The notes under the pieces were generated by a model, which was given only the letters and a program-made list of their open reading frames with translations, made no database searches and was not told the DNA's origin. A stretch of DNA of 64,000 nt from positions 1 through 64,000 of the IMG/VR virus record IMGVR_UViG_3300038415_000126, one strand, 5' to 3'. A program made the position numbers and the translations under genes. Origin of the DNA: a virus. This document shows, piece after piece, positions 257 to 55,578 of the stretch. The first letter of the stretch is position 1, and the number at the start of each line of letters is the position of its first letter.

Positions 257-820
257 TCAAATCACCCAAGCGCGGTTGTACCGGGATACTCGATTGACCG
301 GCGCAGATTTAGGAGGATCATAGATAGGGGTCCAATTCTCCGCGTTGTCCTCCAACCGGGTTATCCCAACCGGATTCTGACCAAATAGATCCACGTAGCC
401 ATTGCGGCTGTAGACCAAACCCAGGGTGGCCCACCGAAACCAGGGGTTCCCTGAGTAACCCCTGGCTGAGATTGGTACCCGTTCGACATCCCTAATCAGG
501 CCGGTGAATCCTCCATTGGCTAGGTCGGTGTCAGGTATCACACTAGCCATAAAGTTCACAAGTTTAGTGGTAATCAACCCGATCTCATAAAGGGAGTCGT
601 TCGAAGACTGCACCTCTATGAGATTGACATTGATGTAACTATCCTCACTTTGAGTGAATCCTACCGAGCTAACCGGGGTATCCAGTTTGACTTGGTCCGT
701 ACCAATAGGTATTCCAAGTATGTACTTGAAACCACCCTCATAGGTCTCGAACCTGAGTGGGGTATGGTCGTCCTGATCAAGCAACCACCAGGTGATAGGG
801 CAAGGGCTGTAGAAGGGCAT
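257..820 (-). CDS. Hypothetical protein with C-terminal SRYxRxWVI tag
   Basis: Ends RVSRYNRAWVI; start moved to the ATG overlapping the upstream stop (TGATG at 822-818). Confidence 0.75.
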   Translation of the reverse strand: MPFYSPCPITWWLLDQDDHTPLRFETYEGGFKYILGIPIGTDQVKLDTPVSSVGFTQSEDSYINVNLIEVQSSNDSLYEIGLITTKLVNFMASVIPDTDLANGGFTGLIRDVERVPISARGYSGNPWFRWATLGLVYSRNGYVDLFGQNPVGITRLEDNAENWTPIYDPPKSAPVNRVSRYNRAWVI

Positions 821-1248
821 CAGATCACCCACTGCCTATTGTATCGGCTTAGAATAGGCTGCGTCTTCTCCGCATGGTACAACTTGGGTAGTTTGAAACC
901 AAGGCCTGCAGCTGCACGATTCTCGAACTGATACGAGATCAACTTGTTGTAGCTCAGGGCTATACCAATACCCCACTTGTCATCGAAGACTAAGACATGG
1001 AACCGATGGTTCTTGTGAGGCTCCACTCCTCGCACATTGAAGAAGACCGAGAAGCACTCCTCGATTAATTCGTAGGTTAGGGGGCGACCGAAAGAGATGA
1101 TGGGGATCTCTGCCTTCGTCAATCGCTCCGTTGTGGTTTTATCCATGAGCGCAAGCACATATCCCTCGGGTCCGTTAGCCCAACTTGTGAACATTGTTGG
1201 GCTCTGAGAGGTCATATTCCACGTGATGGGGATGTAGTGTACCGACAT
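820..1248 (-). CDS. Hypothetical protein with C-terminal tag
   Basis: Ends ILSRYNRQWVI; TGATG coupling with the upstream gene. Confidence 0.75.
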   Translation of the reverse strand: MSVHYIPITWNMTSQSPTMFTSWANGPEGYVLALMDKTTTERLTKAEIPIISFGRPLTYELIEECFSVFFNVRGVEPHKNHRFHVLVFDDKWGIGIALSYNKLISYQFENRAAAGLGFKLPKLYHAEKTQPILSRYNRQWVI

Positions 1249-1763
1249 CAGATCACCCACTTGCGCTCGTACCTGGAAGTTCTAACGGGTGGGGCAACCG
1301 GTGGTAGATCCCCCACGAAGATGGTATCCAACTCTACACCCTCGAAGGCTGGGATCAACTCATTGGGCGTGAATCCAAAGGCCATTGTCATGCTGAGTGT
1401 AGTACCACTTCGCTCACTGTCCATGAGCACCACATAGAGTGTACCTTCATTAGCCCTGAGGACCTTCATTCGTTGGCCAAACTCCTCAAGGTCACGACAG
1501 TGTCTCTTCAAGGCATTCGAGATCAGCTCCTCATTCTGTGCAATAAACATGACCAAAGGGAACTGAATCACACCTTGGTTGTCATCAGTCCCCCTGAGTC
1601 TGTCTCCAGTATACCAACCAGTTAGCTTAGGGGAGATGACTCCGATGTCCCCTTCAACATTCTTCACCAGGATCGCGCGGGCATCGAGACCCCCCACGCG
1701 GGTGAACCTCACCATATTATCTTGTGAGGACTGGAAGAACCACCATCGGGTCTTGGCTGCCAT
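1248..1763 (-). CDS. Hypothetical protein with C-terminal tag; paralog of 15033-15512
   Basis: Ends RTSRYERKWVI; shares GTLYVV and (E/D)LIP(A/T)FEG with 15033-15512. Confidence 0.8.
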   Translation of the reverse strand: MAAKTRWWFFQSSQDNMVRFTRVGGLDARAILVKNVEGDIGVISPKLTGWYTGDRLRGTDDNQGVIQFPLVMFIAQNEELISNALKRHCRDLEEFGQRMKVLRANEGTLYVVLMDSERSGTTLSMTMAFGFTPNELIPAFEGVELDTIFVGDLPPVAPPVRTSRYERKWVI

Positions 1764-1797
1764 CTACGCCGGATGATGCGTCAATCTCGAATGAATG

Positions 1798-2202
1798 TCA
1801 ATCGCGCGGCCCGTGGGTCCCTCGACAGAGGTTGTTGTCCCTCTCGTAATCACTTCTCGGTTTGGCCGGTTGGACCATCGCGTGGGCAAGACAATGGGTA
1901 CAGCACACAATCTCCCTCCCATCCTTGAGTAGAGTCAATGTTCTCTGGAACCCATGGATCTTGCACCACTTTCTGGCCTTGAACTCAGCTAGGGCTCGGG
2001 CCGCCTCGTCTCGAACAATCTCCTTGGAGACGTAGGCTATGATCGCCGCACGAGCAAGCTTCTCGCGAAGGGACCAGCTGAATGGCTTCCCGCACTTGGG
2101 GCAGTCGTTGACCTCCGGAGGGATGTGGGTCCCACAAGACTTGCAGAGAGGCTCTGGTAGAAGGAATATGGCTTCAGAATAGTGCATGTTCCTCATATCC
2201 AT
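1798..2202 (-). CDS. Zinc-ribbon hypothetical protein
   Basis: CKSC..CPKC and CKIH..CTHC motifs. Confidence 0.65.
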   Translation of the reverse strand: MDMRNMHYSEAIFLLPEPLCKSCGTHIPPEVNDCPKCGKPFSWSLREKLARAAIIAYVSKEIVRDEAARALAEFKARKWCKIHGFQRTLTLLKDGREIVCCTHCLAHAMVQPAKPRSDYERDNNLCRGTHGPRD

Positions 2203-2471
2203 GACTCCACGGCTGGTAACCCTGGGGTGTTTGGCTCCGAGAAGCAGCAGCGCCCCTCTGGGATGAACTTGCGCGCCTCTTCCAGGGTGTCGGCGAGATC
2301 ACAGGACTTGCGCGCGAGAAGCTGTCCGTCAACGTCCAGGATGAACTCTCGAACCACGTACTTGTCCGGGTGATCCTTAGGGTGACGGTAGACGGTCAGG
2401 ATGCTGAGGGGCGTCGCTCGGGATTGACCAATGACGAAGATGGGTCTTTTAGGCTGATTCAGGTTCGGCAT
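2193..2471 (-). CDS. Phage hypothetical protein
   Basis: ORF in the packed minus-strand cluster; VYRHPKDHPDKYVVR. Confidence 0.65.
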   Translation of the reverse strand: MPNLNQPKRPIFVIGQSRATPLSILTVYRHPKDHPDKYVVREFILDVDGQLLARKSCDLADTLEEARKFIPEGRCCFSEPNTPGLPAVESWI

Positions 2472-2694
2472 TGGCTATCTCTGACTCTTCGACCAAGTGG
2501 TGGTGGTAGGCTTGGGCTGCGATGCTTTCCTCAAACATCTCCCTGATGAATGCTTCCGGGGTCTGCCCTTGTTCAAAGGAGCTTAGCGCCACCTCGAAGA
2601 GATCATACGGGTCACCCTCGGACCAGATTGGCTCTAGATCAAGGAGCTGGCGCGCTACCTTATCCGCTTCAGCCTTCCACTCGTCGTAGGTCAT
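2449..2694 (-). CDS. Acidic hypothetical protein
   Basis: Start at TAATG overlap with the upstream gene. Confidence 0.55.
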   Translation of the reverse strand: MTYDEWKAEADKVARQLLDLEPIWSEGDPYDLFEVALSSFEQGQTPEAFIREMFEESIAAQAYHHHLVEESEIANAEPESA

Positions 2695-2954: not shown

Positions 2955-2977
2955 TGATTGAGTATTACACCTCAAAT

Positions 2978-3428: not shown

Positions 3429-3437
3429 GGGAGTACT

Positions 3438-4762: not shown

Positions 4763-4767
4763 ACTCT

Positions 4768-9442: not shown

Positions 9443-10093
9443 CTATATAACCCAGGGTCTTTTGTACCGGCTAGGTCTGAGTATAGTACCGAGTGGTACT
9501 AGTCCTGAGCACCCCTTAGCGTCGAACAGCACCCAACATGGTTTACCGGCGACGAGGGCAGTGAACTTGCGAAGAGCCGGAGAGTAGAATGGTGCTGGAT
9601 CCTTTGAATGCCATCGTTGGCAGGTGGAACACGTTGTGGGTCCGGGAAGACCAGTCCACCCAAAAAAGTCAGGTACCTGCTCGGCGTTCAAGAAGCCCAG
9701 GGCTTCTTTTGAGTAGGCCATCGCAATGTCGACTGTTGTTCTTGCACCCTTACGACACCACAGGTCAATCAGGTCAAGGGTCCCTTCGTAACTTGGACCC
9801 ATGAAGGACTTTGAGTAGCTGACCAAGTTCATCGCTAGTGAGTTGACCATATCGACGATATCCTTCTCAAATCCTGAGATACGGATACGAGGTAGTGTGA
9901 CCTCCAAACTATTCACCTCTCGTGTACACTCAGCTATTCCAGATTCAGACCAGTTAGTAACCCCCAGAAGGCTATGACCTATCTGCCCGTCAGCCCTGAC
10001 TAGGAACACGTCATCTTTGATCTCAACCCTCCTAAGTAACTTGAGTGGATCGTTCCCTTTCCTGGTGAGCGCCCATAACCGAGTGTTCATCAA
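9443..10093 (-). CDS. Hypothetical protein with C-terminal tag
   Basis: Ends RPSRYKRPWVI. Confidence 0.75.
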   Translation of the reverse strand: MMNTRLWALTRKGNDPLKLLRRVEIKDDVFLVRADGQIGHSLLGVTNWSESGIAECTREVNSLEVTLPRIRISGFEKDIVDMVNSLAMNLVSYSKSFMGPSYEGTLDLIDLWCRKGARTTVDIAMAYSKEALGFLNAEQVPDFFGWTGLPGPTTCSTCQRWHSKDPAPFYSPALRKFTALVAGKPCWVLFDAKGCSGLVPLGTILRPSRYKRPWVI

Positions 10094-13631: not shown

Positions 13632-13879
13632 ATAATTGGATCCCTCTCGTATCGACTCTTGACCAGGCCTCTTTGCCTCAGCTCGTGGGTCAAGTTTCGA
13701 ATGAACTCCTTCTTGTTCCGGAACTTGGCCCTGACCTCAGCGTTGTTGTCCCAGATAGCTCCGACCACCCCAGCCGCGGTCTCGATGACGATCTCCTCGG
13801 CTGGTTTACCAGTGATCCCGTTGTCCGCGAGGACCCAAGTGATTGACTCAATCAGCCTCTGGTAGTGGCCAGGGTTCAT
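13628..13879 (-). CDS. Hypothetical protein with C-terminal tag
   Basis: Ends VKSRYERDPII. Confidence 0.75.
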   Translation of the reverse strand: MNPGHYQRLIESITWVLADNGITGKPAEEIVIETAAGVVGAIWDNNAEVRAKFRNKKEFIRNLTHELRQRGLVKSRYERDPII

Positions 13880-14295
13880 ATCACCGGGTCCCTCTCGTAG
13901 CGGCTTGGACGTGGGCCTTGGTATGGTTCCGGTGGGTTACGATGTGGATATCCGTCAATTGTTCGAAAGGCATCGACAACATCCATTGCTAAGTCGCCTA
14001 CCCTACTCAGAAGAGATATATTGTTGAGAATACTTGGGTTATCACCTAGGTTTCCGAACCTGGGTGTCGGGATCTGGTGAACCCAACACCTCCACATTAA
14101 CCGGGGATGCATGAGGGGGTCTACATAGGAGATGGGTCTAACATCGAGTAGATCAACGAGAGCCAGTATGTTTTGAGATCCATGTATGTTCTCTATTGCA
14201 TGAAGGAATACCTCGTACCTGTCAGATGTCTCAGTGTCTGCGACGACAACGAAGTTGCAGTTACTGATGATATTGCGGTTGACTGCAAGAGGCAT
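13876..14295 (-). CDS. Hypothetical protein with C-terminal tag
   Basis: Ends RPSRYERDPVI; start at TGATG overlap. Confidence 0.7.
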   Translation of the reverse strand: MPLAVNRNIISNCNFVVVADTETSDRYEVFLHAIENIHGSQNILALVDLLDVRPISYVDPLMHPRLMWRCWVHQIPTPRFGNLGDNPSILNNISLLSRVGDLAMDVVDAFRTIDGYPHRNPPEPYQGPRPSRYERDPVI

Positions 14296-14558
14296 CAGCC
14301 GTGTCCAGTGTAGAACTCCCAAGCGCTCTGCTCTTCGCTCCAGCACCAACCAAGCTTCTTGAGTTGCTTGATCTCGTCGGTTGTGAAGGACAAGTCTTCC
14401 TCAGGACTCTGTGTGGGGCCGACGTAGACTCCCTTGTCGAGCGCAATCAGGGTGACCTTCTTGTTGTGCTTCTGGATGATGCTGACCCCATAGAGGATGG
14501 CGCGGGCGCTCTTCTCAGCAGGGGAGCCTGGCTTGTTGTCTTCAGGTAGAGTGTTCAT
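14295..14558 (-). CDS. Hypothetical protein
   Basis: Coupled ORF in the cluster. Confidence 0.6.
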   Translation of the reverse strand: MNTLPEDNKPGSPAEKSARAILYGVSIIQKHNKKVTLIALDKGVYVGPTQSPEEDLSFTTDEIKQLKKLGWCWSEEQSAWEFYTGHG

Positions 14559-15032: not shown

Positions 15033-15512
15033 TCAAATGACCCATGGGCGCTCGTATCGACTCAATCGGATCACCGGGGCTTTGGTTTGGTTGGTCTGCA
15101 GCCATTGGTCAATGTTCGCTAGCCAGTCTCCGCCCCCGAAGACCGTTGGCCGCCCCTCGAAAGTTGGTATCAAGTCTGGCTCAGCGAAACAAATGGCCAT
15201 GGACCATTCAATGCCTTCATCGAGAGCACCGAGATCTACCACATAAAGAGTACCGTCGGTTATGCCAAACTCTTTACGTCCTTGGTGGACAAGATACCTG
15301 ACGTTGTTGAGTAACCTGTCACCGGTTTCGAACTTGTCTCGCCCACTGAAGGTGACCATGGGGATAGTCACACAATCATCACTGGTCCGGGCTGGGCTCT
15401 CGATGAGGCTATCAGCCCAAAGGGCTAGGACCTTTCCATAGGGAGGCATGACGAGGAATTCAACCTCGTTGGCCACCTTGGAGTGAACACGCTCCCAAGC
15501 CCGGGTCGGCAT
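15033..15512 (-). CDS. Hypothetical protein with C-terminal tag; paralog of 1248-1763
   Basis: Ends RLSRYERPWVI; start at TGATG overlap. Confidence 0.75.
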   Translation of the reverse strand: MPTRAWERVHSKVANEVEFLVMPPYGKVLALWADSLIESPARTSDDCVTIPMVTFSGRDKFETGDRLLNNVRYLVHQGRKEFGITDGTLYVVDLGALDEGIEWSMAICFAEPDLIPTFEGRPTVFGGGDWLANIDQWLQTNQTKAPVIRLSRYERPWVI

Positions 15513-15955
15513 CAGATCACCCAACTTCGTTCGTAGCGGCTCAACCTTCGTACCTGGGGGGTCGGAGTCCCCCACTCAAACGGCTTCTCAGGCTCACGGA
15601 GCATAGATGGGAACTGTGGGACAACATCCTTGTTCGTGTAGAGCATCCCATATCGGACCAAGGACCCAGGGGTCTCGTACCACGTCACGATGTTCATGAT
15701 ACCATCAACGATGTTGAAACCAAACCAATTCTTGGTGAGCCGCGCACCACCCTCGTGCGCCTTCTCCTCAATGGTGTTGATGGTAGCGTAAAGGAGTGGG
15801 ACTCTGATGATTTGATCCCCCGAACCATCCGCTGAGTAAGGAAGTAGTAAATGATCTATGCCGTTGAAGGCATACCCCTTACTTCCGTTGATTAACCTGA
15901 AGCTAACTTCCTCCTCTTGATGCTGGATTACAGACCATATTGTGGTGATTGCCAT
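15512..15955 (-). CDS. Hypothetical protein with C-terminal tag
   Basis: Ends RLSRYERSWVI. Confidence 0.75.
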   Translation of the reverse strand: MAITTIWSVIQHQEEEVSFRLINGSKGYAFNGIDHLLLPYSADGSGDQIIRVPLLYATINTIEEKAHEGGARLTKNWFGFNIVDGIMNIVTWYETPGSLVRYGMLYTNKDVVPQFPSMLREPEKPFEWGTPTPQVRRLSRYERSWVI

Positions 15956-19550: not shown

Positions 19551-20453
19551 TTGACCATGCAAGAGTTCGTATTCGACATGGAGACAAGTGACCCAGACGA
19601 CGTGTTCGCTCTGGCGCTACTCGCTACCCACCCGCGGTCAAAGCTGGTAGGGGTGACCATTCATCCGGGAGGGCTTGATCAGGTTGGGGTGGTTCGTCAC
19701 ATCCTTGGCCGCCTGGGTTGCTCTGGGGTACCTATTGGGACAGGGGCGCCTAAAAGCGCTAAGTCTCGTGTCTCCCAGTTCCACTATGAGTGGTTGGGTC
19801 AGGTTCCAGAGAGTAAGCCTGAAGGAACCGCCACGGAGGTTATCCGGGGCATACTTGACTCCTACCCTCATGCCCATCTAGTGACAGGCGCGGCTCTCAC
19901 CAACATTGCTGAGGCGCTCAAGGCCCTAAGCCCGCGGTTCTTCATTGAGTGGACCTGCCAAGGTGGCTTCGCCGGAGACAACATCGTCCCGCCGGAGCAT
20001 CGGCTTCCCAAGTTCGCTGGTAAGCTCACCTGCCCGACCTTCAACCTCAATGGTGACCCTAGGGCAGCCCAGGAGCTTCTCTGCAGAGACTTCTCTCCCT
20101 TTTGGGTCAGGAGGATGGTCTCGAAGAACGTCTGTCACGGTGTCTTCTGGACGCCCGAGGTCAACGACCGAGTACCCTCTGGGGTTCACGTGGGCCTCGA
20201 CCTCATCAAGGAAGGCATGGGTCACTACTTTCTGAAGCATCCGGATGGAAAGGCGCTTCACGACGTGATTGCGGCTGCAGCAGCCCTCAGCCCAACTATC
20301 GGAACTTGGTCGAAAGTTCACCCCTACCGAGAACGCGGGGAGTGGGGTTGTCGAGAGTTCACCGATCTGGAGATGGCCGCCGATGCACCCGCGCCACCGG
20401 AGGTCATGATCTCGTTCGACAACGATGCTTTTGAAAGGACCCTGGCGAGCTAG
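19551..20453 (+). CDS. Inosine/uridine-preferring nucleoside hydrolase family protein
   Basis: DMETSDPDDVFAL acidic motif, TGAALTN, TFNLNGDP, LHD. Confidence 0.85.
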   Translation: MTMQEFVFDMETSDPDDVFALALLATHPRSKLVGVTIHPGGLDQVGVVRHILGRLGCSGVPIGTGAPKSAKSRVSQFHYEWLGQVPESKPEGTATEVIRGILDSYPHAHLVTGAALTNIAEALKALSPRFFIEWTCQGGFAGDNIVPPEHRLPKFAGKLTCPTFNLNGDPRAAQELLCRDFSPFWVRRMVSKNVCHGVFWTPEVNDRVPSGVHVGLDLIKEGMGHYFLKHPDGKALHDVIAAAAALSPTIGTWSKVHPYRERGEWGCREFTDLEMAADAPAPPEVMISFDNDAFERTLAS

Positions 20454-31447: not shown

Positions 31448-31482
31448 GATACCGTGGGCATCACAATGGAAGTGCTTCGGAC

Positions 31483-32540: not shown

Positions 32541-32544
32541 GTGG

Positions 32545-32796: not shown

Positions 32797-32821
32797 CTTC
32801 GCTTCCTTTCACCCCATGGCG

Positions 32822-33607
32822 CTATCTTGTCAATGGTGCTTGGCATACTAACTCTCTCGAACAGACTGGGCAGTTGAGTGTCTGAGGGCGAAGCTTCAGC
32901 TCTTGGAACGACATGTACCTGGCATCGAAGAGTATCATCCGACCCTCCAGGGACGTCCCGATCCTCAGAAGGTGCTTGAGCACCTCGGTCGCTTGGATCA
33001 TACCGATCATCCCAGGAACAACGCCCAGTACCCCACCAACACCTGGCGGCCTTCCGCTCCCGTGAGTGATGTCCAGGTCTGGGTACAGGCATCGGTAGCA
33101 GGCGCCACCGGGGACAAACTTCGTCACCTGGCCCTCATACCTCGCGACGGCCCCATGGATCCAAGGGATCTTGTACTTCACACAGGCTTCGTTGATGAGG
33201 TATCGGGTAGCCAGGTTGTCACAGGCATCGACGACGATGTCCCACCCAGTCCCAAAGACCCAATCGACTCTTCCATCCGTCAACCGATCTGGATATTCTA
33301 CGACGAGTATCTCTGAATTATGATGACTGACTGCTGCTTCTGCCATCCCAACTTTGAGATGCCCAAGTTGTGTTTCAGAGTAGAGGACTTGCCTGGGGAG
33401 GTTCGAGAGGCTCACCCTGTCATCATCGACGATACCCAGCACCCCAACCCCAGCTCCCGCCAGGTAGAGCGCCACTGGTGACCCGAGTCCGCCAGCGCCC
33501 ACGATGAGGACCTCGCTCTTGAGGAGGCGCTCTTGTCCCGCCTCTCCCACCTCGGGTAACTGAATCTGTCGCTCGTATCGTATTAATTGGTCAGAGGTTA
33601 GGGCCAT
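32822..33607 (-). CDS. ThiF/MoeB/HesA family E1-like adenylyltransferase
   Basis: RYERQI, GQERL, GAGGLGS, DDDRVSLSNLPRQ, DACDN, CYRC and CPVC zinc motifs. Confidence 0.93.
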   Translation of the reverse strand: MALTSDQLIRYERQIQLPEVGEAGQERLLKSEVLIVGAGGLGSPVALYLAGAGVGVLGIVDDDRVSLSNLPRQVLYSETQLGHLKVGMAEAAVSHHNSEILVVEYPDRLTDGRVDWVFGTGWDIVVDACDNLATRYLINEACVKYKIPWIHGAVARYEGQVTKFVPGGACYRCLYPDLDITHGSGRPPGVGGVLGVVPGMIGMIQATEVLKHLLRIGTSLEGRMILFDARYMSFQELKLRPQTLNCPVCSRELVCQAPLTR

Positions 33608-34956
33608 TCCCGGCGAGCATAGCGGGAAACCACGGCTTCTACAATAAGATCATCAGCTAGACGCATAACCGGCTTGTTGTACAGACCGGAAAGTGACAAG
33701 GCTCGTTGCATCCTGAACTTAGCGGTCGGGGTCAGCTTCTCAGGGGCTGCCATGAAGGCAACGAAGGTCTCGGCGAAGTCCTCCTTCTCGTTAGTCTTCC
33801 CATAATCCGAGACTATTTCTAGGTTTTGGAGCTCAGCCTTGTCTTTGGAGACCTTGAGGAGCACGGGATTGTCCAGGCCCATGCGCCTCATGGAAGCGTC
33901 AATCTTCTTCTGCTCAAACTCCCGATCAGAGTCTTTCATGCCAGCCGGACCGTAATCAGGGAAGCGGTCTGGGTGCTTGACCATGAAGAGCACATCTTTC
34001 CCCAAGCGGGTCGGTTTCACTGACTTCCCACTGGGCTCTATGACGGCAGCGCCCAGGCTACACTGACCCAACCAAGTCAGGTATCTAGCCTTGTCGTCAG
34101 GTTCAAGCTCTCCATAGGTAGCCTGCACGTTGTAGCTGTTCGACTTTAGGATCTCGAACAGTCGATGTCGATCCGCTTGATTGACCGTGAGAACACCACC
34201 CTCATCGGACTGAGCTTTCCAACCATTGTCCCATTCTTCTCTGGCTTCAGAAGCAAGATAGCTCAGGTGAATGTAGTGACCAAACTCATGAAGGAAAACC
34301 TCGTTCACCCACGCGATGAATCGTCCCGTACCCTTCCTGATAGTACTACCAGAGAGTGAGATCTGTCTTGTGTTAGATGAGTAGGTCCCAGCAGTATTGT
34401 GGGACATCTCAAGGTCATCATTCGTCGGTACTACCTGAATTGAACTCACACCTTCAGTGAGTAGCTTTTCGCACCCACGCTTCTTGAAGAGCGCATTCAA
34501 GTAGTCGACACCTTCAAGTGTTTCCCGACAGAAGTGGTCTGACATTCGATGTTCGTTGACTACGGAAAATCCACCATAGGTGAACGATGCGGGGGCAACA
34601 CCATTCAAGATGTCCTGAATGCAGGCTCGGTACTTGTCTAGATTCTGCAAGAAATCTTCAAGAGGGGTCTTCCTAGCGAGAACCTCCTCGACCATGTGAT
34701 CCGTCACATAATCATCAGCAAGCCGATCAAGGCGCTCTGGGCAACACACTTTGACCCATTCGACAAAAGGTCTCTTCTTGCTGGGTTTTAGGCCACCCAG
34801 TACCTTGATCCCCTTTTCGTCAAGGGGAGACTTGAGCTTCTTGGCATTCTGATACTTCTTGTTGAAGGCCTCAACTTCTTTGACGGCCGCGTCCCAAAGC
34901 GACACTTCAGCGGTCTTGTATCGGGCTGCTACCCGTAGCGTGATAGGGTCAGTCAT
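33598..34956 (-). CDS. Zincin-like metallopeptidase (HExxH) with N-terminal RVAARY motif
   Basis: LHEFGHYIH; SDYGKTNEKEDFAETF. Confidence 0.8.
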   Translation of the reverse strand: MTDPITLRVAARYKTAEVSLWDAAVKEVEAFNKKYQNAKKLKSPLDEKGIKVLGGLKPSKKRPFVEWVKVCCPERLDRLADDYVTDHMVEEVLARKTPLEDFLQNLDKYRACIQDILNGVAPASFTYGGFSVVNEHRMSDHFCRETLEGVDYLNALFKKRGCEKLLTEGVSSIQVVPTNDDLEMSHNTAGTYSSNTRQISLSGSTIRKGTGRFIAWVNEVFLHEFGHYIHLSYLASEAREEWDNGWKAQSDEGGVLTVNQADRHRLFEILKSNSYNVQATYGELEPDDKARYLTWLGQCSLGAAVIEPSGKSVKPTRLGKDVLFMVKHPDRFPDYGPAGMKDSDREFEQKKIDASMRRMGLDNPVLLKVSKDKAELQNLEIVSDYGKTNEKEDFAETFVAFMAAPEKLTPTAKFRMQRALSLSGLYNKPVMRLADDLIVEAVVSRYARREWP

Positions 34957-36197
34957 TTTCCCACCAAAGTCTCAAATGGCTCGACCAATGCTCTCGGGAG
35001 CCTGTCAAGACAGTAGAATGCGAACATCTCAGCGAAGTTCTCACTAGGTCCACCCTTCTTGGCATAGTTCGTCACAAAGCCTTTGAAGTCGGGTTGAGTG
35101 AGGTCACGAGTCTTCTCACCTTTCATAGACAACCAACCATCAAGATCGATCTTGTAGTTGGTCCCTGGCTTGGATTCGGTGACCATGTGCACTACCCATG
35201 AACCTCGCCCATTGGGTATGGTCTGAGTCACCTGGAACGTCTTGCCCTTGTTGACCACAGTATCACCGATAGCGGGAAGTAAGGCCTTAGTTTCGGATAG
35301 ACCCTTACCATCCTCTTGGTTTTCGATCACACGGTACAATTGTTTAATGTCCCAATCACGACCCTTCATGAACTGGTGTTGATAGCGATGTCCTAACTCA
35401 TGGATAGTGGTTTTCAGGATGTCCGGGGAGGCTTTTGCGTCAGCTCGAACGAACATCTCATCAGAGTTAAAAAGGTAGAAAGCATAGGCGTTACGCATCA
35501 GCTTGTTGGTGACCTGGATGTCTCCGTAGCAGACCTTGCCGAAGCCCTTCGACTTCAGATGTGCTTGAGCCTTCTGGGCCAAGTCAGTAATTGTATCCAT
35601 GACCTTACCAGGGAAGCCCCCAGTATTGACCAGTGTGAAGTCACCCACCTTGATTCGAGTTGCCCCCTCACCCCCTTCTGAGTGAGCCTTACCAGTCCCA
35701 ACGGCCAGTATCGCAACCGCAAGATGGCCCTTGAGTTGAGCCATCCGCTTCTCGTAGATGTCAAACTTTTCGAGGTCTCTTTCAATCCCACGTTGCTTAA
35801 TCCTCGGAAGGCCAACACTGGCATAAACGAGCGCCGCCTTCTCGACTTTCTTCCTCAGGGGTTCTGGTAGGACCTTTTCCTGCAAGATTGAGAGGAACAA
35901 CGGATCAAGAACCCCATTGGCAAGACCTTCAAACCCTTTCGTTGCCTTGAACCAAGCCTTGTAAGCTAGATCCTCAGCTTCAATGTATCCAGGCCACTTT
36001 CGTTCCCATGTATGGGGGCCAACCTTTTCAGCTTCGAGGTACTCGTTGATGACTTTCCGGGCTTTAGCAATATCCTGCTCGGGGATCTCCAATAACGCGA
36101 CCCCAGCTATGAACTTGTGCAGTAAGGCATTAGGGTCACCTACTGCCTTAGCCCGCAGGTACCTAGCTGCTACTCGGAGGCTGATCGGGTCTATCAC
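34953..36197 (-). CDS. Zincin-like metallopeptidase paralog with N-terminal RVAARY motif
   Basis: IHELGHRY; TNYAKKGGPSENFAEMF; start reassigned to GTG (IDPISLRVAARY) by analogy with its neighbour. Confidence 0.8.
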   Translation of the reverse strand: MIDPISLRVAARYLRAKAVGDPNALLHKFIAGVALLEIPEQDIAKARKVINEYLEAEKVGPHTWERKWPGYIEAEDLAYKAWFKATKGFEGLANGVLDPLFLSILQEKVLPEPLRKKVEKAALVYASVGLPRIKQRGIERDLEKFDIYEKRMAQLKGHLAVAILAVGTGKAHSEGGEGATRIKVGDFTLVNTGGFPGKVMDTITDLAQKAQAHLKSKGFGKVCYGDIQVTNKLMRNAYAFYLFNSDEMFVRADAKASPDILKTTIHELGHRYQHQFMKGRDWDIKQLYRVIENQEDGKGLSETKALLPAIGDTVVNKGKTFQVTQTIPNGRGSWVVHMVTESKPGTNYKIDLDGWLSMKGEKTRDLTQPDFKGFVTNYAKKGGPSENFAEMFAFYCLDRLPRALVEPFETLVGK

Positions 36198-36380
36198 CCT
36201 TGAGGTCGGACATAGATAGAATCTCGACACACTGCTCGATGATCCTGCGTACTTGACCAGCAAGGGCGGCCTCAAGAGCGGCATCGACCATCTCTACTGC
36301 TTGATCTAAGGTCACCTTGTCGCTACGGATCACTTCGACCAGATCAACGATAGCTTGCCTCTTTCGAGCCGCGTCCACAT

Positions 36381-38804: not shown

Positions 38805-39449
38805 CTAGATCACCCACGGACGTTCGTACCGTGATACCCGAGGGGGCCTAGGCTCACTTATCACACCCAAGCTCTTAGGTACCCATAGATCAGGGATGTC
38901 AGAGTAATGCATCGGAGTGCAGTGGAACTCAGGCTCGGGCTCGACCGTTGAATAGCCAAGGACCAGACTATACGACTTGCTATCGGCCAATGAAGCCTTG
39001 ACTCCCGGCCTAGTAACAATGAACAAGGTCCCGCCAGGTATCAAAATCCCCTTGTCACCGAGGAATCTGGTGAGTTGATTTACCCGATTCCCCATAGTCC
39101 TCATTGGATCAAACACACGCCCATTGTTCTTGAACCATCTGTCAGTGATCTTCAGAACAGGTAGAGTCAGCTTCAATGGCTCACTCAATGTCACGTGGTC
39201 CTGGCGCTCAAAGTGGAACTCAAACCGACCATTCTCAGTTTTATCCCACTTAGTATGCCACTTCTCACAAGTATCTTCCCAATTGACCAGTAGCCCACCC
39301 ACTCCAACTGAAACAACAGTATAGCTAGCAGCGGCCCGAGAGTACGGGACGACGCGCAAACCATCCAAGTTCTCCGAGGTCTCGTACCACTTGAGGTGGG
39401 TGGGTAAGGGCATCGCGTGGTCGTACCATGGTGCGACAATTGTTGTCAA
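38805..39449 (-). CDS. Hypothetical protein with C-terminal tag
   Basis: Ends RVSRYERPWVI; GTLFIV similar to the 1248/15033 family. Confidence 0.75.
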   Translation of the reverse strand: MTTIVAPWYDHAMPLPTHLKWYETSENLDGLRVVPYSRAAASYTVVSVGVGGLLVNWEDTCEKWHTKWDKTENGRFEFHFERQDHVTLSEPLKLTLPVLKITDRWFKNNGRVFDPMRTMGNRVNQLTRFLGDKGILIPGGTLFIVTRPGVKASLADSKSYSLVLGYSTVEPEPEFHCTPMHYSDIPDLWVPKSLGVISEPRPPRVSRYERPWVI

Positions 39450-43379: not shown

Positions 43380-43895
43380 TTAGATCACCCAAGCCCGATT
43401 GTACCGCGATACTCGACGAACCTGTGGCTCATCAGGGAGCCTAACCTCGACCTGAAGAGGGACAGCAAACTGTGGGGTCAACCACAAGTGACTCGCGAGG
43501 CTTGCAGGGAGCTCCTTCATCCCCTGAATAGGGGTTAGCTCGTTGGTCAGACTCGCATATGCGAGGCCCAAATACACAACAGCATAGCCCCTATCCTCAC
43601 GATGAATCCAGTAGGCCCCGTAGAAGTTCCCGTCTCTGAACCCGTACTCATTATCAGAGGCCGCATAGTCAACCATGTCCTGAGCACCCCTTGTGAGTTG
43701 TTCAAACAGAGGGTCAGCCCACTCACTGATGAGGGTGACAATCGCTATGTCATGCGTTAGGAACCATGCCTCAACGCCTGCATTCCGGTTGTCATAGTCC
43801 TTGTAGTTCAGGCAGACAATCGGAGTCGAAGTGGTGTGGAACCCAGCCGGTGCATCTGTTGGGACTTCGAACCAGCGAATCGCCTTTGAGATCAT
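43380..43895 (-). CDS. Hypothetical protein with C-terminal tag
   Basis: Ends RVSRYNRAWVI. Confidence 0.75.
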   Translation of the reverse strand: MISKAIRWFEVPTDAPAGFHTTSTPIVCLNYKDYDNRNAGVEAWFLTHDIAIVTLISEWADPLFEQLTRGAQDMVDYAASDNEYGFRDGNFYGAYWIHREDRGYAVVYLGLAYASLTNELTPIQGMKELPASLASHLWLTPQFAVPLQVEVRLPDEPQVRRVSRYNRAWVI

Positions 43896-44365
43896 ACCAA
43901 GACACTAGCCTTGAGGAAGGTCTTCTCCGGACCCCACACGACCTCGTACAGCTCGTCAAAGCCTTCCGCCAGGGTTGGGGCAACGAACAACTTTGCCTTC
44001 GCTAGAATGCCCACACGAGGTATCAAAGCCTTCCCGACCCTCCGTGAGTTGCGATCTAGTGACTGCTGGGTAGAGCACCTAAAGTGATACCCCACAACCC
44101 AGGCAGAGTACTCCCGGCCGATTTGTATCAGCTCAGACCGCTCTTCCAACGTCACATTCGTGTTGTCCACAACCACTGAGCGCCCAGCACTCAGATCTTC
44201 TCGGATGAGTTGCGCCTGCCGAGCCGACTTGGACACCCCGCTCTTCCGGTCTCGACCCATCATGTCCTTGCTCACGACACTATGCTTCGGGTACTCCGCC
44301 ATCCGGAATGTACTCTTCCCCGATGCTTGTAGGCCCACAAGTATGACTAGGTCCATTGAATTCAC
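43892..44365 (-). CDS. P-loop polynucleotide-kinase-like protein (AAA_33)
   Basis: GLQASGKST Walker A; VVVDNTN; RNSRR lid; EGFDE. Confidence 0.85.
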   Translation of the reverse strand: MNSMDLVILVGLQASGKSTFRMAEYPKHSVVSKDMMGRDRKSGVSKSARQAQLIREDLSAGRSVVVDNTNVTLEERSELIQIGREYSAWVVGYHFRCSTQQSLDRNSRRVGKALIPRVGILAKAKLFVAPTLAEGFDELYEVVWGPEKTFLKASVLV

Positions 44366-45132
44366 TCATCCGATCTAAGCACACCCAGACCGAGACACAA
44401 CTTAGTCACGAGACTAGCATATTCTGGCCCACGAGGGAGGTCTCGGTTTACATAGACCCTTCTCCTCAAAGCCATACTCGTCTCGTTCTTCTTGGGGTTG
44501 AACCCGTTCTTCTCGAAGTTCTCCCAGTAAATCCCGCAACCCCGCTTTTGCCATGCAGGAACGTTATTGAAGTTGATCCCGTGCTTGTGCAAGAGCTCGT
44601 TCTTCTCACTGAAGGTCTTGCCCTCAAGAGCTTTCGTCGCTTCCAAGGCGCTCTTGCCCTTGCCTCGAAGCGTCCAGTAGCACCACCCATTGAGGCAGCA
44701 CCGGGAAGCATCCGACTGCCTCCATCTGAAGTAGTCGACCACGTCATCATTCGAAACCCCAACCCACACGCGACTATCAAAGTGAGCCGGATAACTCAGT
44801 TTGACTGAGAAAATAGAACTTGCCACGCCCGCGGACACCGAAACCAGCTTCTCGATCTCTCGACCGAATAAGTCGGTATCACGGGGTAAGAGAACGCTGA
44901 TCTCATCCGACTCCGTGAAGGCGTAGAGCCCACCCAGCTCGACTAGTAGGGCAAGAGCCGTCGCCACCATGTAGTCGTGGAACTTGTGGTCAAAGGGGTG
45001 CTCAAACACCTTGGTCAATCGAGTGAAGCTCCGTCCATCAACGCGAATAACCATCCAAGCACCGGGAAGGGCCGCCATCGAGTGGTAACACTCAAGTCGT
45101 CGCATCCTGTCTTCAAGGCTATCGGACTTCAT
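44362..45132 (-). CDS. thg1: tRNA(His) guanylyltransferase Thg1-like protein (3'-5' polymerase)
   Basis: IRVDGRSF, TESDEIS, FDSR, YFRWRQ.DA.R, KNELL...GINFN..P.WQKRG. Confidence 0.95.
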   Translation of the reverse strand: MKSDSLEDRMRRLECYHSMAALPGAWMVIRVDGRSFTRLTKVFEHPFDHKFHDYMVATALALLVELGGLYAFTESDEISVLLPRDTDLFGREIEKLVSVSAGVASSIFSVKLSYPAHFDSRVWVGVSNDDVVDYFRWRQSDASRCCLNGWCYWTLRGKGKSALEATKALEGKTFSEKNELLHKHGINFNNVPAWQKRGCGIYWENFEKNGFNPKKNETSMALRRRVYVNRDLPRGPEYASLVTKLCLGLGVLRSDE

Positions 45133-51301: not shown

Positions 51302-51811
51302 CTAGAACCGTGTCAATTGGAACTCACTCGGCGCCTGGTCCCGAGTCAGGTTCTCCTCACCCTCCGCCACGATGACAAACGTTTGCTGAGGTATCAAACG
51401 AGACGTGTGAACCGTCGCCCCCCAAATCTTGCCCTGTATCCCTTGTACCAAGGCTGAACTATCAGCTTCATGCTCGAAGATGTCATGACACAACTTGCGG
51501 AGATCCGCGCAATTGTAGGCGTTCACCCAAATGTCGGTTACCTTCTTGTCCATCCTGTTCTTATTGACGAACGCAATCGAGAGGATATCCCGTGTTAAAC
51601 AGGACGGTCGTTGAACCGCAAGCTCCACCTGTTCAACTGCCTCCAGCAATAGGTCGAAAGCCTTGTCACGAGCCGGATTGGCATGAACTTCTTGAGCTAC
51701 TTCATTGGCCAAAGCCAGAAACTTACCCCTGATCCTATTGATGACTACAACCTGCTCATCCGTCAGAGCATTCTTCGGACCCAAGTAATGCGACATCTCT
51801 AAGTACGGCAT
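51302..51811 (-). CDS. Putative Acb2/Tad1-like helical hairpin fused to a capsid-protein-like segment
   Basis: LTDEQ...NRIRGKFLALA..V.......A...L.EA.....AV, then IWVNAYNCADLRK...KIWGATVHTSRLIP. Confidence 0.45.
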   Translation of the reverse strand: MPYLEMSHYLGPKNALTDEQVVVINRIRGKFLALANEVAQEVHANPARDKAFDLLLEAVEQVELAVQRPSCLTRDILSIAFVNKNRMDKKVTDIWVNAYNCADLRKLCHDIFEHEADSSALVQGIQGKIWGATVHTSRLIPQQTFVIVAEGEENLTRDQAPSEFQLTRF

Positions 51812-52158
51812 ACAAACCCTTTCCAAACCACCTACACCGGGGATCAGAACCGTGTGGATACCCATGACCCACGATCCTCATCCGGGATCTCGATGTCACT
51901 CAAAAAAGTGCTTTCAGCGTCGGTGAAGAGGTTCTGTCCAGGAACCCCATACAACTGGTTGTATATCTCGGTGGCATGATCAAAGATCTTCCGCTCCTCA
52001 AGTGTCACCCCTTCTGAAGGTGTCTTTTTCTCCTTGGGCATCATCGCGAATAGCTGGTCAAAACAGGAGTACCACTCCAGAATCAACTTCGCTCGCTCTC
52101 GACCTAGTATTCTCGACCCCTGAGCTTGATTGTCCATACCACAAGTACACCGATGGGG

Positions 52159-52578
52159 TTAGATCACCGGATCCCGGTTGTATCTCGAAATCCGTACCCC
52201 AATATATCGTTCAGGCTCCGTAACTTGAACCGGCTCAACAGTATCCCCTGAATACCGAATAGTCACAACTGGCTCAAGCCGACTGGTTAGGTTTTCATAC
52301 CAACCCGTAGCCTCTGGAAATGTGACTTCAACAGAACAAGGCCCAAACCCACTCTCCATCGTGAACCCAAATCGATTGAACCCCGTGAGTCGAGTCCCAC
52401 CTATCCAAACTCGACCCACAGATCTTGGACTCCCGTCACTATAGCCATACTCACCCTCAAGTACCTGCATCACAACAACTAAGTCGTTCGGCCCCAACTC
52501 GTGATAACCCCCACGTAAGCCCCCACGCCCCTTGACCACAAACACTACGTCACTGTCATCCACTTCAATGGTAGGCAT
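52159..52578 (-). CDS. Hypothetical protein with C-terminal tag; paralog of 21655-22116
   Basis: Ends RISRYNRDPVI. Confidence 0.75.
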   Translation of the reverse strand: MPTIEVDDSDVVFVVKGRGGLRGGYHELGPNDLVVVMQVLEGEYGYSDGSPRSVGRVWIGGTRLTGFNRFGFTMESGFGPCSVEVTFPEATGWYENLTSRLEPVVTIRYSGDTVEPVQVTEPERYIGVRISRYNRDPVI

Positions 52579-52579
52579 G

Positions 52580-52903
52580 TCAGATCACCGGCGACCTATC
52601 GTATCGACTCACTCAATGGATTGATGGGACTACCTCAGGGCTTGAACCCGTAACCGAGTACCCGAGCTGACTCACTAACCCACTAGGCCATTGAAGGGTA
52701 ACTGTCCAAAGCTCAAGGTTACCGCGACCATAAACAACCTGAGTCGCTGCCACCATCATAGCTTGAAGATCTGACATACCAGGGTCAAGAGCAGAAAGTA
52801 TCGAGTTCCACAGGTCCTCTGTCTCTTGGACATCGAGACCAGTAATTCTAGTCACCCGTACAGGGTTACCACCTTCACTAGCTTTTAGTGTTACTTCAAT
52901 CAT
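52580..52903 (-). pseudogene. Tagged hypothetical protein whose tag is cut off by an in-frame TGA
   Basis: ...PSIH*VSRYDRSPVI*; TGA at 52615-52613 occupies the usual Arg of RVSRY. Confidence 0.7.
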
Positions 52904-53172
52904 ATTACCGGCTCCCGGTTGTACCGTGATACACGAATCATCGGCGTCCAGTCCAAACAATCGTCATGCGTGTTCGCCCGATACAACCGAATTACCGGGA
53001 CCTTATTGGGATCCCCTGGCTTCTTCCACTCCCAGAGGATACCAACCGAATGCCCACGAAGGCAAGTCCCCTCCCACCCAAAGTCAGGGGACCGCTCTAC
53101 CTCATCTCCAGTAGCCCCTCGACTCGGATACGTGGTCGGACACCACCGACAACCATCACAGGGGCGTGGCAT
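52900..53172 (-). CDS. Cys-rich paralog 1 with C-terminal tag
   Basis: PCDGCR..P.TYP..G; ends RVSRYNREPVI. Confidence 0.75.
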   Translation of the reverse strand: MPRPCDGCRWCPTTYPSRGATGDEVERSPDFGWEGTCLRGHSVGILWEWKKPGDPNKVPVIRLYRANTHDDCLDWTPMIRVSRYNREPVI

Positions 53173-53629
53173 CCGGGTCCGGCTCCCGTGTCCCCAACGA
53201 CCAAAGCGACACTATTCCCTCCAAGTACCACTCAACTTGATCCGCTGAGGCATCAATGATACCCAACCCACCCCTTCGAAACGGGCTTATAGTGATGTGA
53301 GCACAATACGAGGACACCTTCCCGCAGATCTCACGAAAACTCTCCTCAAACTGACTATCGACCGAGTCAATAGTCAGTACCGTCACATGAGTCGAGCGCT
53401 CACCAATGAACAACACATTGTGCAGTAGAAGACGCACATAGAGCTGCTCAGCTACCCAAAGGATCCGCTGATCATGGTCTTCATCCCAGATAACAGCGAA
53501 GTCGTGAAACTTCATCCGCGGAACCCAAACCAACGCCCGTAGAACAGAGTAATGCGCCCCCTTGCCAAAATGGTCCGCCGGAGAGGGTTCATCGTACACG
53601 GTACTAAAAAACTCAGAGTATCTGTTCAT
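53156..53629 (-). CDS. Hypothetical protein
   Basis: HDFAVIWDEDHD. Confidence 0.7.
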   Translation of the reverse strand: MNRYSEFFSTVYDEPSPADHFGKGAHYSVLRALVWVPRMKFHDFAVIWDEDHDQRILWVAEQLYVRLLLHNVLFIGERSTHVTVLTIDSVDSQFEESFREICGKVSSYCAHITISPFRRGGLGIIDASADQVEWYLEGIVSLWSLGTREPDPDATPL

Positions 53630-53660
53630 GTAGGTGAGGATCCGATATAACTAGGCGAAA

Positions 53661-54080
53661 TCAGGCCTGTATCAGAGCCTCATACGCTACTTGCTCGAAT
53701 AATGCAACACGGGCTCCCCGAGAGTCGATTAGGGATACCCCTGCCTTGAAACCCAGACGGTCTAGCTCCTGAACCAAGGACCAGGATGGGCCCACCACCT
53801 TGGAGAGCGCTTCCACTACCGACTCCGCTCGAACCCCATCAACCGTGTCCCCAGGCTCCCCTACGCCCGCCCCAGGTAGACTAGGAGCCAAGTCCCACCA
53901 CCATAGAGGGTCCCAGTCGTCGATGTGAGCATGGTCCTCAAACGAGGTCGTGATCATCCACGCATTCTTCGTCTCAACCTGCCCCTGCCCAACCCGATAG
54001 TTCACCCCTCCAGTAGGCCTGAGAATCAGTATGTTCGCTCGCTTGTTGATGTGATACCGAGGATCTTCGTTATGCCACAT
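53661..54080 (-). CDS. Hypothetical protein
   Basis: GGTGTA motif 10 nt upstream. Confidence 0.65.
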   Translation of the reverse strand: MWHNEDPRYHINKRANILILRPTGGVNYRVGQGQVETKNAWMITTSFEDHAHIDDWDPLWWWDLAPSLPGAGVGEPGDTVDGVRAESVVEALSKVVGPSWSLVQELDRLGFKAGVSLIDSRGARVALFEQVAYEALIQA

Positions 54081-54187
54081 GAGGAGGGACTACACCGTGG
54101 ATCGATTCTATGACCCAATCCCCCCATGGTGGAATAGATACAATCGGCCAGAACGTTAGTGTCAGTTTAGTGTATACTTTTGAAGCC

Positions 54188-54958
54188 ATGCCAGAGGGTA
54201 CCTTAGAGCAAGTCATTAGAAGAGTCAGAAGTCTCTACGACTTGGCTGATAACACGACCGAGCATGAGGCTTCCACTGCTATCGGGGCTGCCGAACGACT
54301 CATGCAGAAGTATAGATTGACCCAGGTCGATCTCCTCCAGACCTACACTGTGGCGACCGAGATACCCTCTGAATGTGAATACCCAATTGAGTTTGCAGGT
54401 AGAATCCACCGCTGGAAGGGTCTGCTCATCCTGGACCTCGCCAAACAATACGGGTGCTCAATCTACTACCATACCCGCCGCCCGAAGGTAGGACCTAAAC
54501 GAATTGAGGTTAGAGTAGTTGGCCTACCCTCTGATGTAGCCATGCTCAGGATACAGTACGACAGCATCAAACAACAGGTCAACAATCTCACTCGAATTAA
54601 CACTAGAGGCCAGGGGATAAGAAACGCAGACAGTTACCGAAAAGGCCTCACAGACTCGATTCGCAGGGAACTGAAGGAACTAACTAATCAACTCAAACAA
54701 GAGTCATCGACTACCGCCATAGTGTTGCTTGATAGCAGGCTTCCTAAAGCCAAGAAAGCCAGGGATGAGTTACACCCAGATCTGACCGATAGATGTACCT
54801 CGTTTTCAGAACCAGCTTCAAATGCCTACATCCAGGGTTGGACTGACGGTGACAAGATCCACCTCGGTCGTGAACTTCCAGATCAATCTAAACCTGGTGA
54901 ACCAGTAGGGTACCTTAGCTCCGATAGCCACTCTATGACTGAACCGCCTTCGGAGTAA
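54188..54958 (+). CDS. DUF2786-domain protein
   Basis: IRRVRSLYDLA..TTEHEASTA...AERLMQKY N-terminal motif, SYRKG, AYIQGW.DG; start could be 54110. Confidence 0.8.
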   Translation: MPEGTLEQVIRRVRSLYDLADNTTEHEASTAIGAAERLMQKYRLTQVDLLQTYTVATEIPSECEYPIEFAGRIHRWKGLLILDLAKQYGCSIYYHTRRPKVGPKRIEVRVVGLPSDVAMLRIQYDSIKQQVNNLTRINTRGQGIRNADSYRKGLTDSIRRELKELTNQLKQESSTTAIVLLDSRLPKAKKARDELHPDLTDRCTSFSEPASNAYIQGWTDGDKIHLGRELPDQSKPGEPVGYLSSDSHSMTEPPSE

Positions 54959-54960
54959 CG

Positions 54961-55269
54961 TCAGATCACCGGCTTGCGAGCATACCTTGAAACCCGTGGC
55001 CCAAGGTATGGCTCCTCCCAGTCAGAACATATCATGGCTGGAGATCGATACAAGTGAATGGCCCTTTGATGGTCTATACCCCCAGTCTCATCAAGGTCAA
55101 AGCTCCAGGACACCAACACCTCGTACCCACGAGCACAAGTCCCCCTCCAAGTATAAATCGAATCCGGCTCCCGACCTATCGCATCCACCCCAACAACACC
55201 CCTCCCAGGATACATCGAAGGACTGAATCGACACTTGTCACACGGTGCTGGCATCGGATCAGTTGGCAT
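54961..55269 (-). CDS. Cys-rich paralog 2 with C-terminal tag
   Basis: PCDKCR.SP.MYPG.G; ends RVSRYARKPVI. Confidence 0.75.
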   Translation of the reverse strand: MPTDPMPAPCDKCRFSPSMYPGRGVVGVDAIGREPDSIYTWRGTCARGYEVLVSWSFDLDETGGIDHQRAIHLYRSPAMICSDWEEPYLGPRVSRYARKPVI

Positions 55270-55272
55270 AGA

Positions 55273-55578
55273 TCAAATCACAGGCTCCCTTGAGTAACGA
55301 CTAACCCTCGGCCCGTCATATGGCTCTTCCCGGTCACCACACTCAGTCCAAAACGGTAACCGAAACATGTAAATGACCCGCTCATGATCCTCATTCCAAA
55401 CCCATGTTATCGACACCGAATGACCCCTACTACATGAATTTTCCCAGTCAAAGCCCCCATCTGACACCTGATCAACTCGCTCACCAAGATAGCCCTTCCC
55501 AGGATAGGTAGCAGGACTGTACCGACACCCGTCACAAGGTTGCAGCATGGATGAGTTGCTCATGAAAAACTTTGACAC
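55273..55578 (-). CDS. Cys-rich paralog 3 with C-terminal tag
   Basis: PCDGCRYSPATYPGKG; ends RVSRYSREPVI. Confidence 0.75.
   Translation of the reverse strand: MSKFFMSNSSMLQPCDGCRYSPATYPGKGYLGERVDQVSDGGFDWENSCSRGHSVSITWVWNEDHERVIYMFRLPFWTECGDREEPYDGPRVSRYSREPVI

Follow-up and report, generated by a model that had tools for sequence, protein, structure and literature searches.

A C-terminal peptide on unrelated small proteins of a huge-phage lineage: a probable docking tag and its candidate readers

Why should so many of the small proteins of one virus, in several unrelated families, end in the same few residues? The question is raised by the first 64,000 nucleotides (the window) of IMG/VR record IMGVR_UViG_3300038415_000126, which is 98,513 bases long, where a first-pass annotation made from the sequence alone had listed 17 open reading frames (ORFs) ending in the peptide [ST]RYxRx[WP][VI]I, here called the tag. 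A six-frame regular-expression scan of the window returned 17 matches at the annotated coordinates, every one of them on the minus strand with a stop codon immediately after it, and no internal (non-terminal) match in any frame. Sixteen of these tags terminate ORFs, as had been claimed (81–216 amino acids), but the one at 52580 is split from its ORF by an in-frame TGA. When the scan was extended to the whole record and set against a shuffled null, the check that the annotation had proposed, 21 intact and two broken copies were found where 0.015 matches are expected by chance (mean of 200 shuffles); the tag is real and far beyond chance. All 21 intact copies form the extreme C-terminus of a protein, and about one gene in seven is tagged (the record holds about 147 strand-consistent ORFs of at least 60 amino acids). 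The fuller consensus spans 11 residues, R-[VIL]-[ST]-R-Y-x-R-x-[WP]-[VI]-I-COOH, in which Arg, Tyr, Arg and Ile are invariant, and the form seen in the window, R-Y-x-R-x-[WP]-V-I, has a mean net charge of +2. We found no paper describing this tag in the literature.

The tag is most probably a portable C-terminal docking peptide. It would act as an 11-residue short linear motif on a flexible linker rich in Pro and Glu, fused to many unrelated small soluble proteins, and one common partner, a single reader co-evolving with the tag, would recognise all of them. We collected 77 distinct carriers from this record, from the related IMG/VR records G001 and G002 and from metagenome contigs; their median length is 137 amino acids, and single-linkage clustering (BLAST, E<1e-4) places them in 42 families, a count that reflects BLAST-level similarity, so that remoter homology could still join some families. 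Within this record, all-against-all blastp of the protein bodies yields one family of three (the Cys-rich proteins at 52900, 54961 and 55273), one pair and otherwise singletons, bearing out the annotated diversity of bodies. Pro makes up 15% of the 15 residues that precede the tag compared with 6% of the bodies, as expected from the Pro-rich linker noted earlier, and Glu is enriched there too (77 carriers). No hydrophobic segment is present in 74 of the 77 carriers, and the carriers are soluble proteins.

A carrier of the HU family (79319–79705 of the record, outside the window) shows how tag and fold are related: the fold stops about 30 residues short of the tag, and the HU body is tagged in this record while its paralogues in G001 and G002 are untagged. 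Several further pairs of tagged and untagged homologues were found. These comparisons support the view that the tag is a modular signal on unrelated proteins, separate from any shared fold; the opposite case, that all tagged proteins belong to one homologous family whose fold includes the motif, is contradicted by the 42 families and by the HU fold ending before the tag. The modular signal that the annotation envisaged is thus borne out at the level of the peptide and of its presence on diverse bodies; the readers that it proposed are candidates. Searches of the record's carriers with Pfam and PHROGs gave no match except for HU, and an AlphaFold2 (AF2) model of the Cys-rich carrier family reached a predicted local distance difference test (pLDDT) score of only 60. 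Other recognisable domains on carriers of the lineage are a transcriptional regulator and DUF2158; one Tad2-like (anti-Thoeris) domain was found among 75 carriers scanned, and one carrier family contains an inserted domain that matches tail and virion-structural PHROGs. In relatives, the recognisable carriers include a DUF3268 zinc finger, two Top1-type zinc ribbons and one RecA/Rad51-like ATPase. Recognisable carriers are mostly DNA-binding (HU, the regulator, the DUF3268 and Top1-type zinc ribbons and the RecA/Rad51-like protein).

Selection acts on the peptide, since the conserved Ser and Arg positions are written with varied synonymous codons. AGC, AGT, TCA, TCG and TCC are all in use for Ser, and all six Arg codons (CGN and AGR) occur at the two invariant Arg positions at about their genome-wide frequencies, which upholds the synonymous-codon argument of the first-pass annotation. 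Every conserved position of the tag is kept in orthologues whose bodies are only 50–63% identical. The W and P forms swap between orthologues, with the carrier at 52900 ending in EPVI and its orthologues in G001 and G002 in KWVI and AWVI, respectively, which suggests one reader rather than two.

Two copies are broken. Public contigs aligned to 51800–55700 reveal a ∼98%-identical strain in pond and viral-fraction metagenomes that has G, not A, at position 52615, so that the coding strand reads CGA (Arg) in the sister strain where the record reads TGA; two peat runs retain the TGA. The break at 52580 is thus a recent nonsense loss in the peat strain, at the codon for the conserved Arg(-10). A second break lies outside the window (96087–96263 of the record, plus strand), where a 58-codon ORF carries the tag with its Trp codon replaced by TAG (SRYDRK-stop-VI-stop). 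Among the collected loci, neither broken carrier gave an orthologue. Recoding of TGA or TAG was considered and dropped, as both in-frame stops are single transitions and one of them is CGA in the sister strain.

How far does the tag extend beyond this genome? When 1.84 billion representative proteins were searched with a profile built from 41 tails, 11 reached E<=1e-3: ten orthologues of the lineage's own proteins and one repeat protein. A DNA pattern for the W form matched only this lineage in IMG/VR and gave multi-copy matches on metagenome contigs, including the 443-kb contig Ga0265338_10000010; in 596 Gb of prokaryote genomes it gave 68 single hits, evidently by chance. The related records G001 and G002 carry 20 tags in 67 kb and nine in 66 kb, with none for the reversed-pattern controls. 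The phage is present in peat, pond and viral-fraction metagenomes, with no RNA data set among the sequencing runs listed, and its genome can be put at ∼450–500 kb because CheckV completeness of the three fragments of the lineage (this record, G001 and G002) is 13–19%. Across the collections searched, the exact tag is restricted to one lineage of peat and pond phages of roughly 450–500 kb. A megablast search with 10 kb against GenBank phages gave no match.

More distant relatives were reached through the HExxH peptidase encoded at 34953–36284 and through ClpX, and were then taken whole: G004 (447.8 kb, complete, with terminal repeats), G005 (363 kb) and G006 (286 kb). The exact tag is absent from all three by pattern scan. 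An unbiased count of ORF-end-anchored residue triplets recovers SRFD.LIG in G004, where about 10 genes end in SRFD[LM]I[GE] or in SRFDLM followed by an acidic tail. The corresponding dialect of G005 is [ST]R[YF]D[LRK][IL], and that of G006 comprises TRF[DE]R[IL], TRFDREDPV and TRFNRDEPV; PTRFDREDPV of G006 is visibly akin to PTRYEREPVI of the window. The core [ST]R[YF][DE][LMRK] lies within 13 residues of the stop 11, 14 and 12 times in G004, G005 and G006, respectively, compared with 0, 2 and 0 for the reversed control. No near-stop core motif was seen on the fragments G009 and G010 (clamp-bearing) and G011 (ClpX-bearing), which are partial genomes only. By these diverged forms in distant relatives, the tag is of long standing in the phage group and has drifted apart into dialects from lineage to lineage, which is what a co-evolving reader predicts, and such a reader is likely on these sequence comparisons. 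Between none and seven further residues follow the core in the relatives, so a free carboxylate directly after the motif is not a conserved requirement.

Our tentative first choice for the reader is a sliding clamp of the beta type, very divergent and the phage's own. Once on phage DNA, this clamp would serve as a landing platform that gathers the tagged proteins (HU, recombinase-like and zinc-ribbon DNA binders, small regulators and ORFs without known relatives, or ORFans) on the phage chromosome. In phage T4, the gp45 clamp gathers gp43, gp33 and gp55 through interchangeable C-terminal tails. These tails are highly similar on otherwise unrelated proteins, each joined to its protein by a divergent unstructured linker (PMC2988020). 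A candidate clamp was found in the relatives, where the Pfam C-domain model gave no match and a weak N-domain match in G006 led to a protein of 403–416 amino acids common to G004, G005 and G006 (45–56% identity). Its AF2 model (pLDDT 94.5) matches only DnaN clamps (template modelling score 0.7–0.8, 12–16% identity) and the family has 110 relatives, many on contigs of several hundred kb and up to 549 kb. On the modelled fold, each of these three relatives has a clamp of its own that is very divergent. The canonical clamp-binding motif is Q-phi-x-[L/M]-[F/L] or Q-phi-x-[L/M]-x-[F/L], the last position also accepting Ile (PMC11139829), and R-F-D-[LM]-I of G004 fits this consensus at positions 2–5 and not at position 1. 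The analogy with T4 gp45 drawn by the annotation gains some support from the relatives' own clamp, from the fit of G004 to four of five positions and from the DNA-binding carriers.

Several observations weigh against the clamp. The basic tag of the window fits neither the Q-phi-x-[L/M] consensus nor the hydrophobic-acidic epitope of T4, and has Arg where Leu or Met is needed. The three fragments of the lineage (98.5, 67 and 66 kb, each 13–19% of the genome) hold no clamp gene. Among the ORFs of at least 400 amino acids in G004–G006, where polymerases are expected, C-termini lack the tag except for one unannotated ORF of 422 amino acids, and the clamp-carrying fragments G009 and G010 are without tags. 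One gene in seven is, to our knowledge, far more clients than any known clamp has, and the Tad2-like carrier has no obvious business on DNA.

A phage ClpX unfoldase is nearly as likely a reader as the clamp; the tail would dock on its zinc-binding N-domain or enter the pore. The clients, many of them probably early or accessory proteins, would then be degraded with host ClpP, remodelled or translocated, and ClpX would be their common timer or handler. A ClpX with a C4 zinc-finger N-domain is encoded in all four relatives examined (G004, G005, G006 and G011), and in three of them (G005, G006 and G011) the gene adjoins an HExxH peptidase with a related motif, R-V-x-x-R-[FY], at its start. A search of the relatives for ClpP gave none. 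The ClpX of G004 keeps its IGF loop, and ClpP is absent from this complete genome, a combination that is compatible with the use of host ClpP. ClpX ordinarily serves many and diverse clients, and nonsense loss of a tag, as in the peat strain, would be an easy route to stabilising a single protein. ClpX-docking peptides such as ALRVVK of SspB and RRKKAI of MuA are short, basic and hydrophobic, and C-terminal, a style that the tag resembles, although it has no close match to any defined ClpX motif. At least 58 huge-phage contigs in IMG/VR encode ClpX, and in ∼20 kb around each ClpX gene tag-like ORF ends appear only for G004, G005 and G006. Neither ClpX nor ClpP is encoded on the three fragments of the lineage, and the DNA-binding bias of the recognisable carriers would be left unexplained. 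The ClpX gene of G005 (L152, G005:214250–217357) is split by an intein-like insertion within Walker A (GPSGC...HNTGKTH).

Taken more broadly, the dialects could reflect proteome-wide addressing in a clade of huge environmental phages (about 300–550 kb), with a peptide that drifts with its reader and is carried by at most about 15% of genes; the hub would be either a divergent clamp, as a landing pad that marks phage DNA, or ClpX. We put this forward tentatively.

A reader supplied by the host, for example a protease, chaperone, clamp or RNA polymerase reached or used through the tag, is unlikely. The hydrophobic V-I-COOH that follows basic residues is in the style of several host degrons and PDZ ligands, a lineage-specific sequence could track a particular host, and no phage reader was found on the fragment. 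Against this, up to seven extra residues follow the tags of the relatives, where the free carboxylate is not conserved, and the tag changes from one phage lineage to another at a pace that a conserved host hub would not usually permit. The PDZ-protease degron suggested by the first-pass annotation has lost ground for the first of these reasons and also because a search with the PDZ_2 model found no such domain in this record, G001, G002, G005 or the complete G004; the V-I-COOH of this lineage is a hydrophobic free C-terminus as in PDZ ligands.

Loading into the capsid or another compartment, whereby the tails would bind the inner face of the assembling head, a scaffold or a portal-associated protein and so bring dozens of small proteins into the particle for delivery alongside the DNA, is quite unlikely. 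Scaffolding-protein C-termini and the cargo-loading peptides of encapsulins do load HK97-fold shells. A C-terminal peptide on a flexible linker, with many small soluble cargoes and a lineage-specific sequence, would suit such a role, as would HU and Tad2-like anti-defence carriers, useful at injection, and the carrier family whose inserted domain matches tail and virion-structural PHROGs. No structural gene was identified on the fragment, however, the tag is unlike known loading peptides, and roughly 100 cargo species per genome would be unprecedented. A membrane-targeting sequence was dropped as a candidate, the P-type tags being too acidic and the invariant S-R-Y-x-R arguing for a protein reader. 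A modest share of the probability falls to explanations beyond those weighed here.

The remark in the annotation that the last codons (GGTGATC) may also serve initiation of the next gene deserves separate treatment. Val(-1) is encoded by GTG in 17 of 22 tags (25% genome-wide) and Pro(-2) by CCG in eight of 12 (22% genome-wide), the stop is TGA in 16 of 22, and an ATG lies at -4 to +5 nucleotides from the end of the stop in 15 of 22. The bias and the nearby ATG codons thus agree in part with the remark; genes of this genome show no upstream enrichment of the canonical GGAG. A second, weaker layer, at the nucleotide level, pulls the end of the tag towards GGTGAT, and the last codons (G GTG ATC TGA), which usually overlap or abut the next ATG, probably also aid translational coupling. 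In G002 an out-of-frame truncated tag, RYERDPVI-stop, lies 5 nucleotides past the stop of a tagged gene (G002:23014–23072), and convergent genes have tags that overlap on opposite strands at G001:44366–44411 and G002:44350–44395; these duplicates and overlaps may be traces of gene loss or exchange through recombination at tags. That the conservation is mainly of this kind, a ribosome-binding or coupling element or a gene-end recombination site with the peptide as by-product, is highly improbable and as a sole explanation already largely refuted, despite the codon and stop bias, the close ATGs and these hints of recombination, as the S-R-Y-x-R stretch is low in DNA identity (five Ser codons from both boxes, six Arg codons), GGAG-type Shine-Dalgarno sequences are not enriched, and the peptide is retained in tags without a coupled downstream gene (257, 9443, 15033, 54961 and 89794) and with V-I written as GTT ATA, GTC ATT or GTA ATA.

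The tagged genes of the window are listed in Table 1. Beside the Cys-rich cluster, a plus-strand ORF of 282 amino acids (54110–54958) sits among minus-strand genes. In a contig assembled from a separate peat run, 54096 is followed directly by 54965 and this ORF is missing, the joint adjoining the stop of the tagged gene at 54961–55269; the ORF is thus a strain-variable insertion, the peat contig skipping 54097–54964.

Table 1. Tag-bearing genes of the window, in order of position
Feature	Position	Strand	C-terminal end	Remarks
Carrier ORF	257–832	-	NRVSRYNRAWVI-stop	Tag and stop at 257–292; translation probably begins at the ATG that overlaps the upstream stop (820)
Carrier ORF	820–1260	-	PILSRYNRQWVI-stop	Stop overlaps ATG of next gene (TGATG); orthologues in L048 and L076 retain the tag
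Carrier ORF	1248–1763	-	VRTSRYERKWVI-stop	Body akin to carriers at 15033 and 38805
Carrier ORF	9443–10093	-	LRPSRYKRPWVI-stop	Ends GTT ATA TAG; without coupled downstream start
Carrier, 83 amino acids	13628–13879	-	VKSRYERDPII-stop	Orthologue P0007 ends SRYEREPVI
Carrier	13876–14349	-	PRPSRYERDPVI-stop	
Carrier	15033–15575	-	IRLSRYERPWVI-stop	
Carrier	15512–15955	-	RRLSRYERSWVI-stop	Orthologue in L035
Carrier, 81 amino acids	15955–16200	-	IPTRYERKPVI-stop	
Carrier, 92 amino acids	16472–16750	-	PPTRYEREPVI-stop	
Carrier	38805–39449	-	PRVSRYERPWVI-stop	Tag kept in 6/6 homologues at 54–63% identity
Carrier	43380–43895	-	RRVSRYNRAWVI-stop	52%-identical orthologue ends SRYERSWVI
Carrier	52159–52578	-	VRISRYNRDPVI-stop	
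Broken carrier	52580–52903	-	VSRYDRSPVI-stop	Body 52616–52903; TGA 52613–52615 at Arg(-10), then intact tag
Cys-rich carrier, 90 amino acids	52900–53172	-	IRVSRYNREPVI-stop	
Cys-rich paralogue, 102 amino acids	54961–55269	-	PRVSRYARKPVI-stop	
Cys-rich paralogue, 101 amino acids	55273–55578	-	PRVSRYSREPVI-stop	

Elsewhere in the window, several genes for nucleotide metabolism and RNA repair lie among the ORFans: a nucleoside hydrolase, an RNA ligase, an AAA_33 kinase and a tRNA-His guanylyltransferase (Thg1-like) are encoded at 19551–20453, 24238–25176 and 43892–45132, all untagged, and the largest ORF (657 amino acids, in the region 27666–32016) has no Pfam or PHROG match. An arrangement at 32301–36284 on the minus strand looks like a small conjugation or processing module. 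It contains a ThiF/E1-like adenylyltransferase (32822–33607, Pfam ThiF E=4e-72) downstream of two paralogous HExxH metallopeptidases (33598–34956 and 34953–36284), and the ThiF gene is followed by an ORF of 83 amino acids (32545–32796) that ends EIKGGVVKVW and may encode a protein of the ubiquitin-like type, its Gly-Gly followed by a short extension. A tblastn search with the 443-amino acid peptidase gave a single match of 24% (LR745208.1). The ThiF enzyme was dropped as a reader of the tag's carboxylate, the adjacent 83-amino acid ORF with its Gly-Gly six residues before the end being the likelier substrate, and the two peptidases were dropped as readers, having homologues in relatives and bearing a related but different motif at their own ends. 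A second shared motif, R-V-A-x-R-[YF], is found at the N-termini of larger proteins (MTDPITLRVAARYK, DPISLRVAARYL and MSADLIQRVASRFI), at 33598–34956, 34953–36284 and 26404–26793 of the window and at 77016–78356 of the record, and it may belong to the same address system at the other end of the protein; the peptidase that adjoins ClpX in G005, G006 and G011 is a homologue with this start. The 452-amino acid peptidase ends in the tag-like AVVSRYARREWP, while its orthologues end VAHRYLQAS....

If one reader serves a seventh of the proteins of a huge phage, its identity would give a function, place or time to dozens of ORFans and would show how very large phages organise their proteome. Being short, portable and lineage-specific, the tag could also serve as an orthogonal handle for docking or degradation, and a regular expression applied to ORF ends is a simple marker by which fragments of this phage group can be classified in peat and pond metagenomes. 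The tag has kin among known systems (clamp-binding tails, degrons and loading peptides) and it is the scale that is unusual; the clamp candidate and the loss of a tag at strain level are new here.

Among these systems, the clamp tails of T4 parallel the proposed docking peptide exactly in their anatomy: an extreme C-terminal peptide, interchangeable between unrelated carriers with divergent linkers, that addresses one phage-encoded hub (PMC2988020). The T4 epitope is hydrophobic and acidic and occurs on three known proteins, however, whereas the present tag is basic (+2), has an invariant R-Y-x-R and is found on about one gene in seven. The bacterial beta-clamp motif (QL[S/D]LF) is likewise a short linear motif, often in a C-terminal tail, on many unrelated partners, and is matched by R-F-D-[LM]-I-[GE] of G004 at positions 2–5; position 1 is Arg and not Gln, and in the lineage of the window position 4 is also Arg, followed by [WP]-V-I. 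ClpX tags (LRVVK of SspB, RRKKAI of MuA and LAA of ssrA) similarly bring diverse proteins to one AAA+ machine by short C-terminal peptides that are basic and hydrophobic, but the present tag ends in R-x-[WP]-V-I and belongs to no defined class, the complete relative lacks ClpP, and many ClpX genes of huge phages have no tag nearby. In encapsulin and scaffold systems, too, a peptide at one end of the protein is common to unrelated cargo, which it brings into a viral or virus-derived shell; the C-terminal peptides known to do so differ from the tag in sequence, and nothing seen here ties the carriers to the virion. The capsid-targeting sequence of T4 is N-terminal (∼10 residues) and is removed by the prohead protease, unlike this tag, which is C-terminal in every copy. 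Finally, the peroxisomal targeting signal PTS1 (S-K-L-COOH, read by Pex5) is, like the tag, a strictly C-terminal address on many unrelated soluble proteins, there with one receptor, although it comprises only three residues and directs import into a eukaryotic organelle, whereas the phage has no known compartment.

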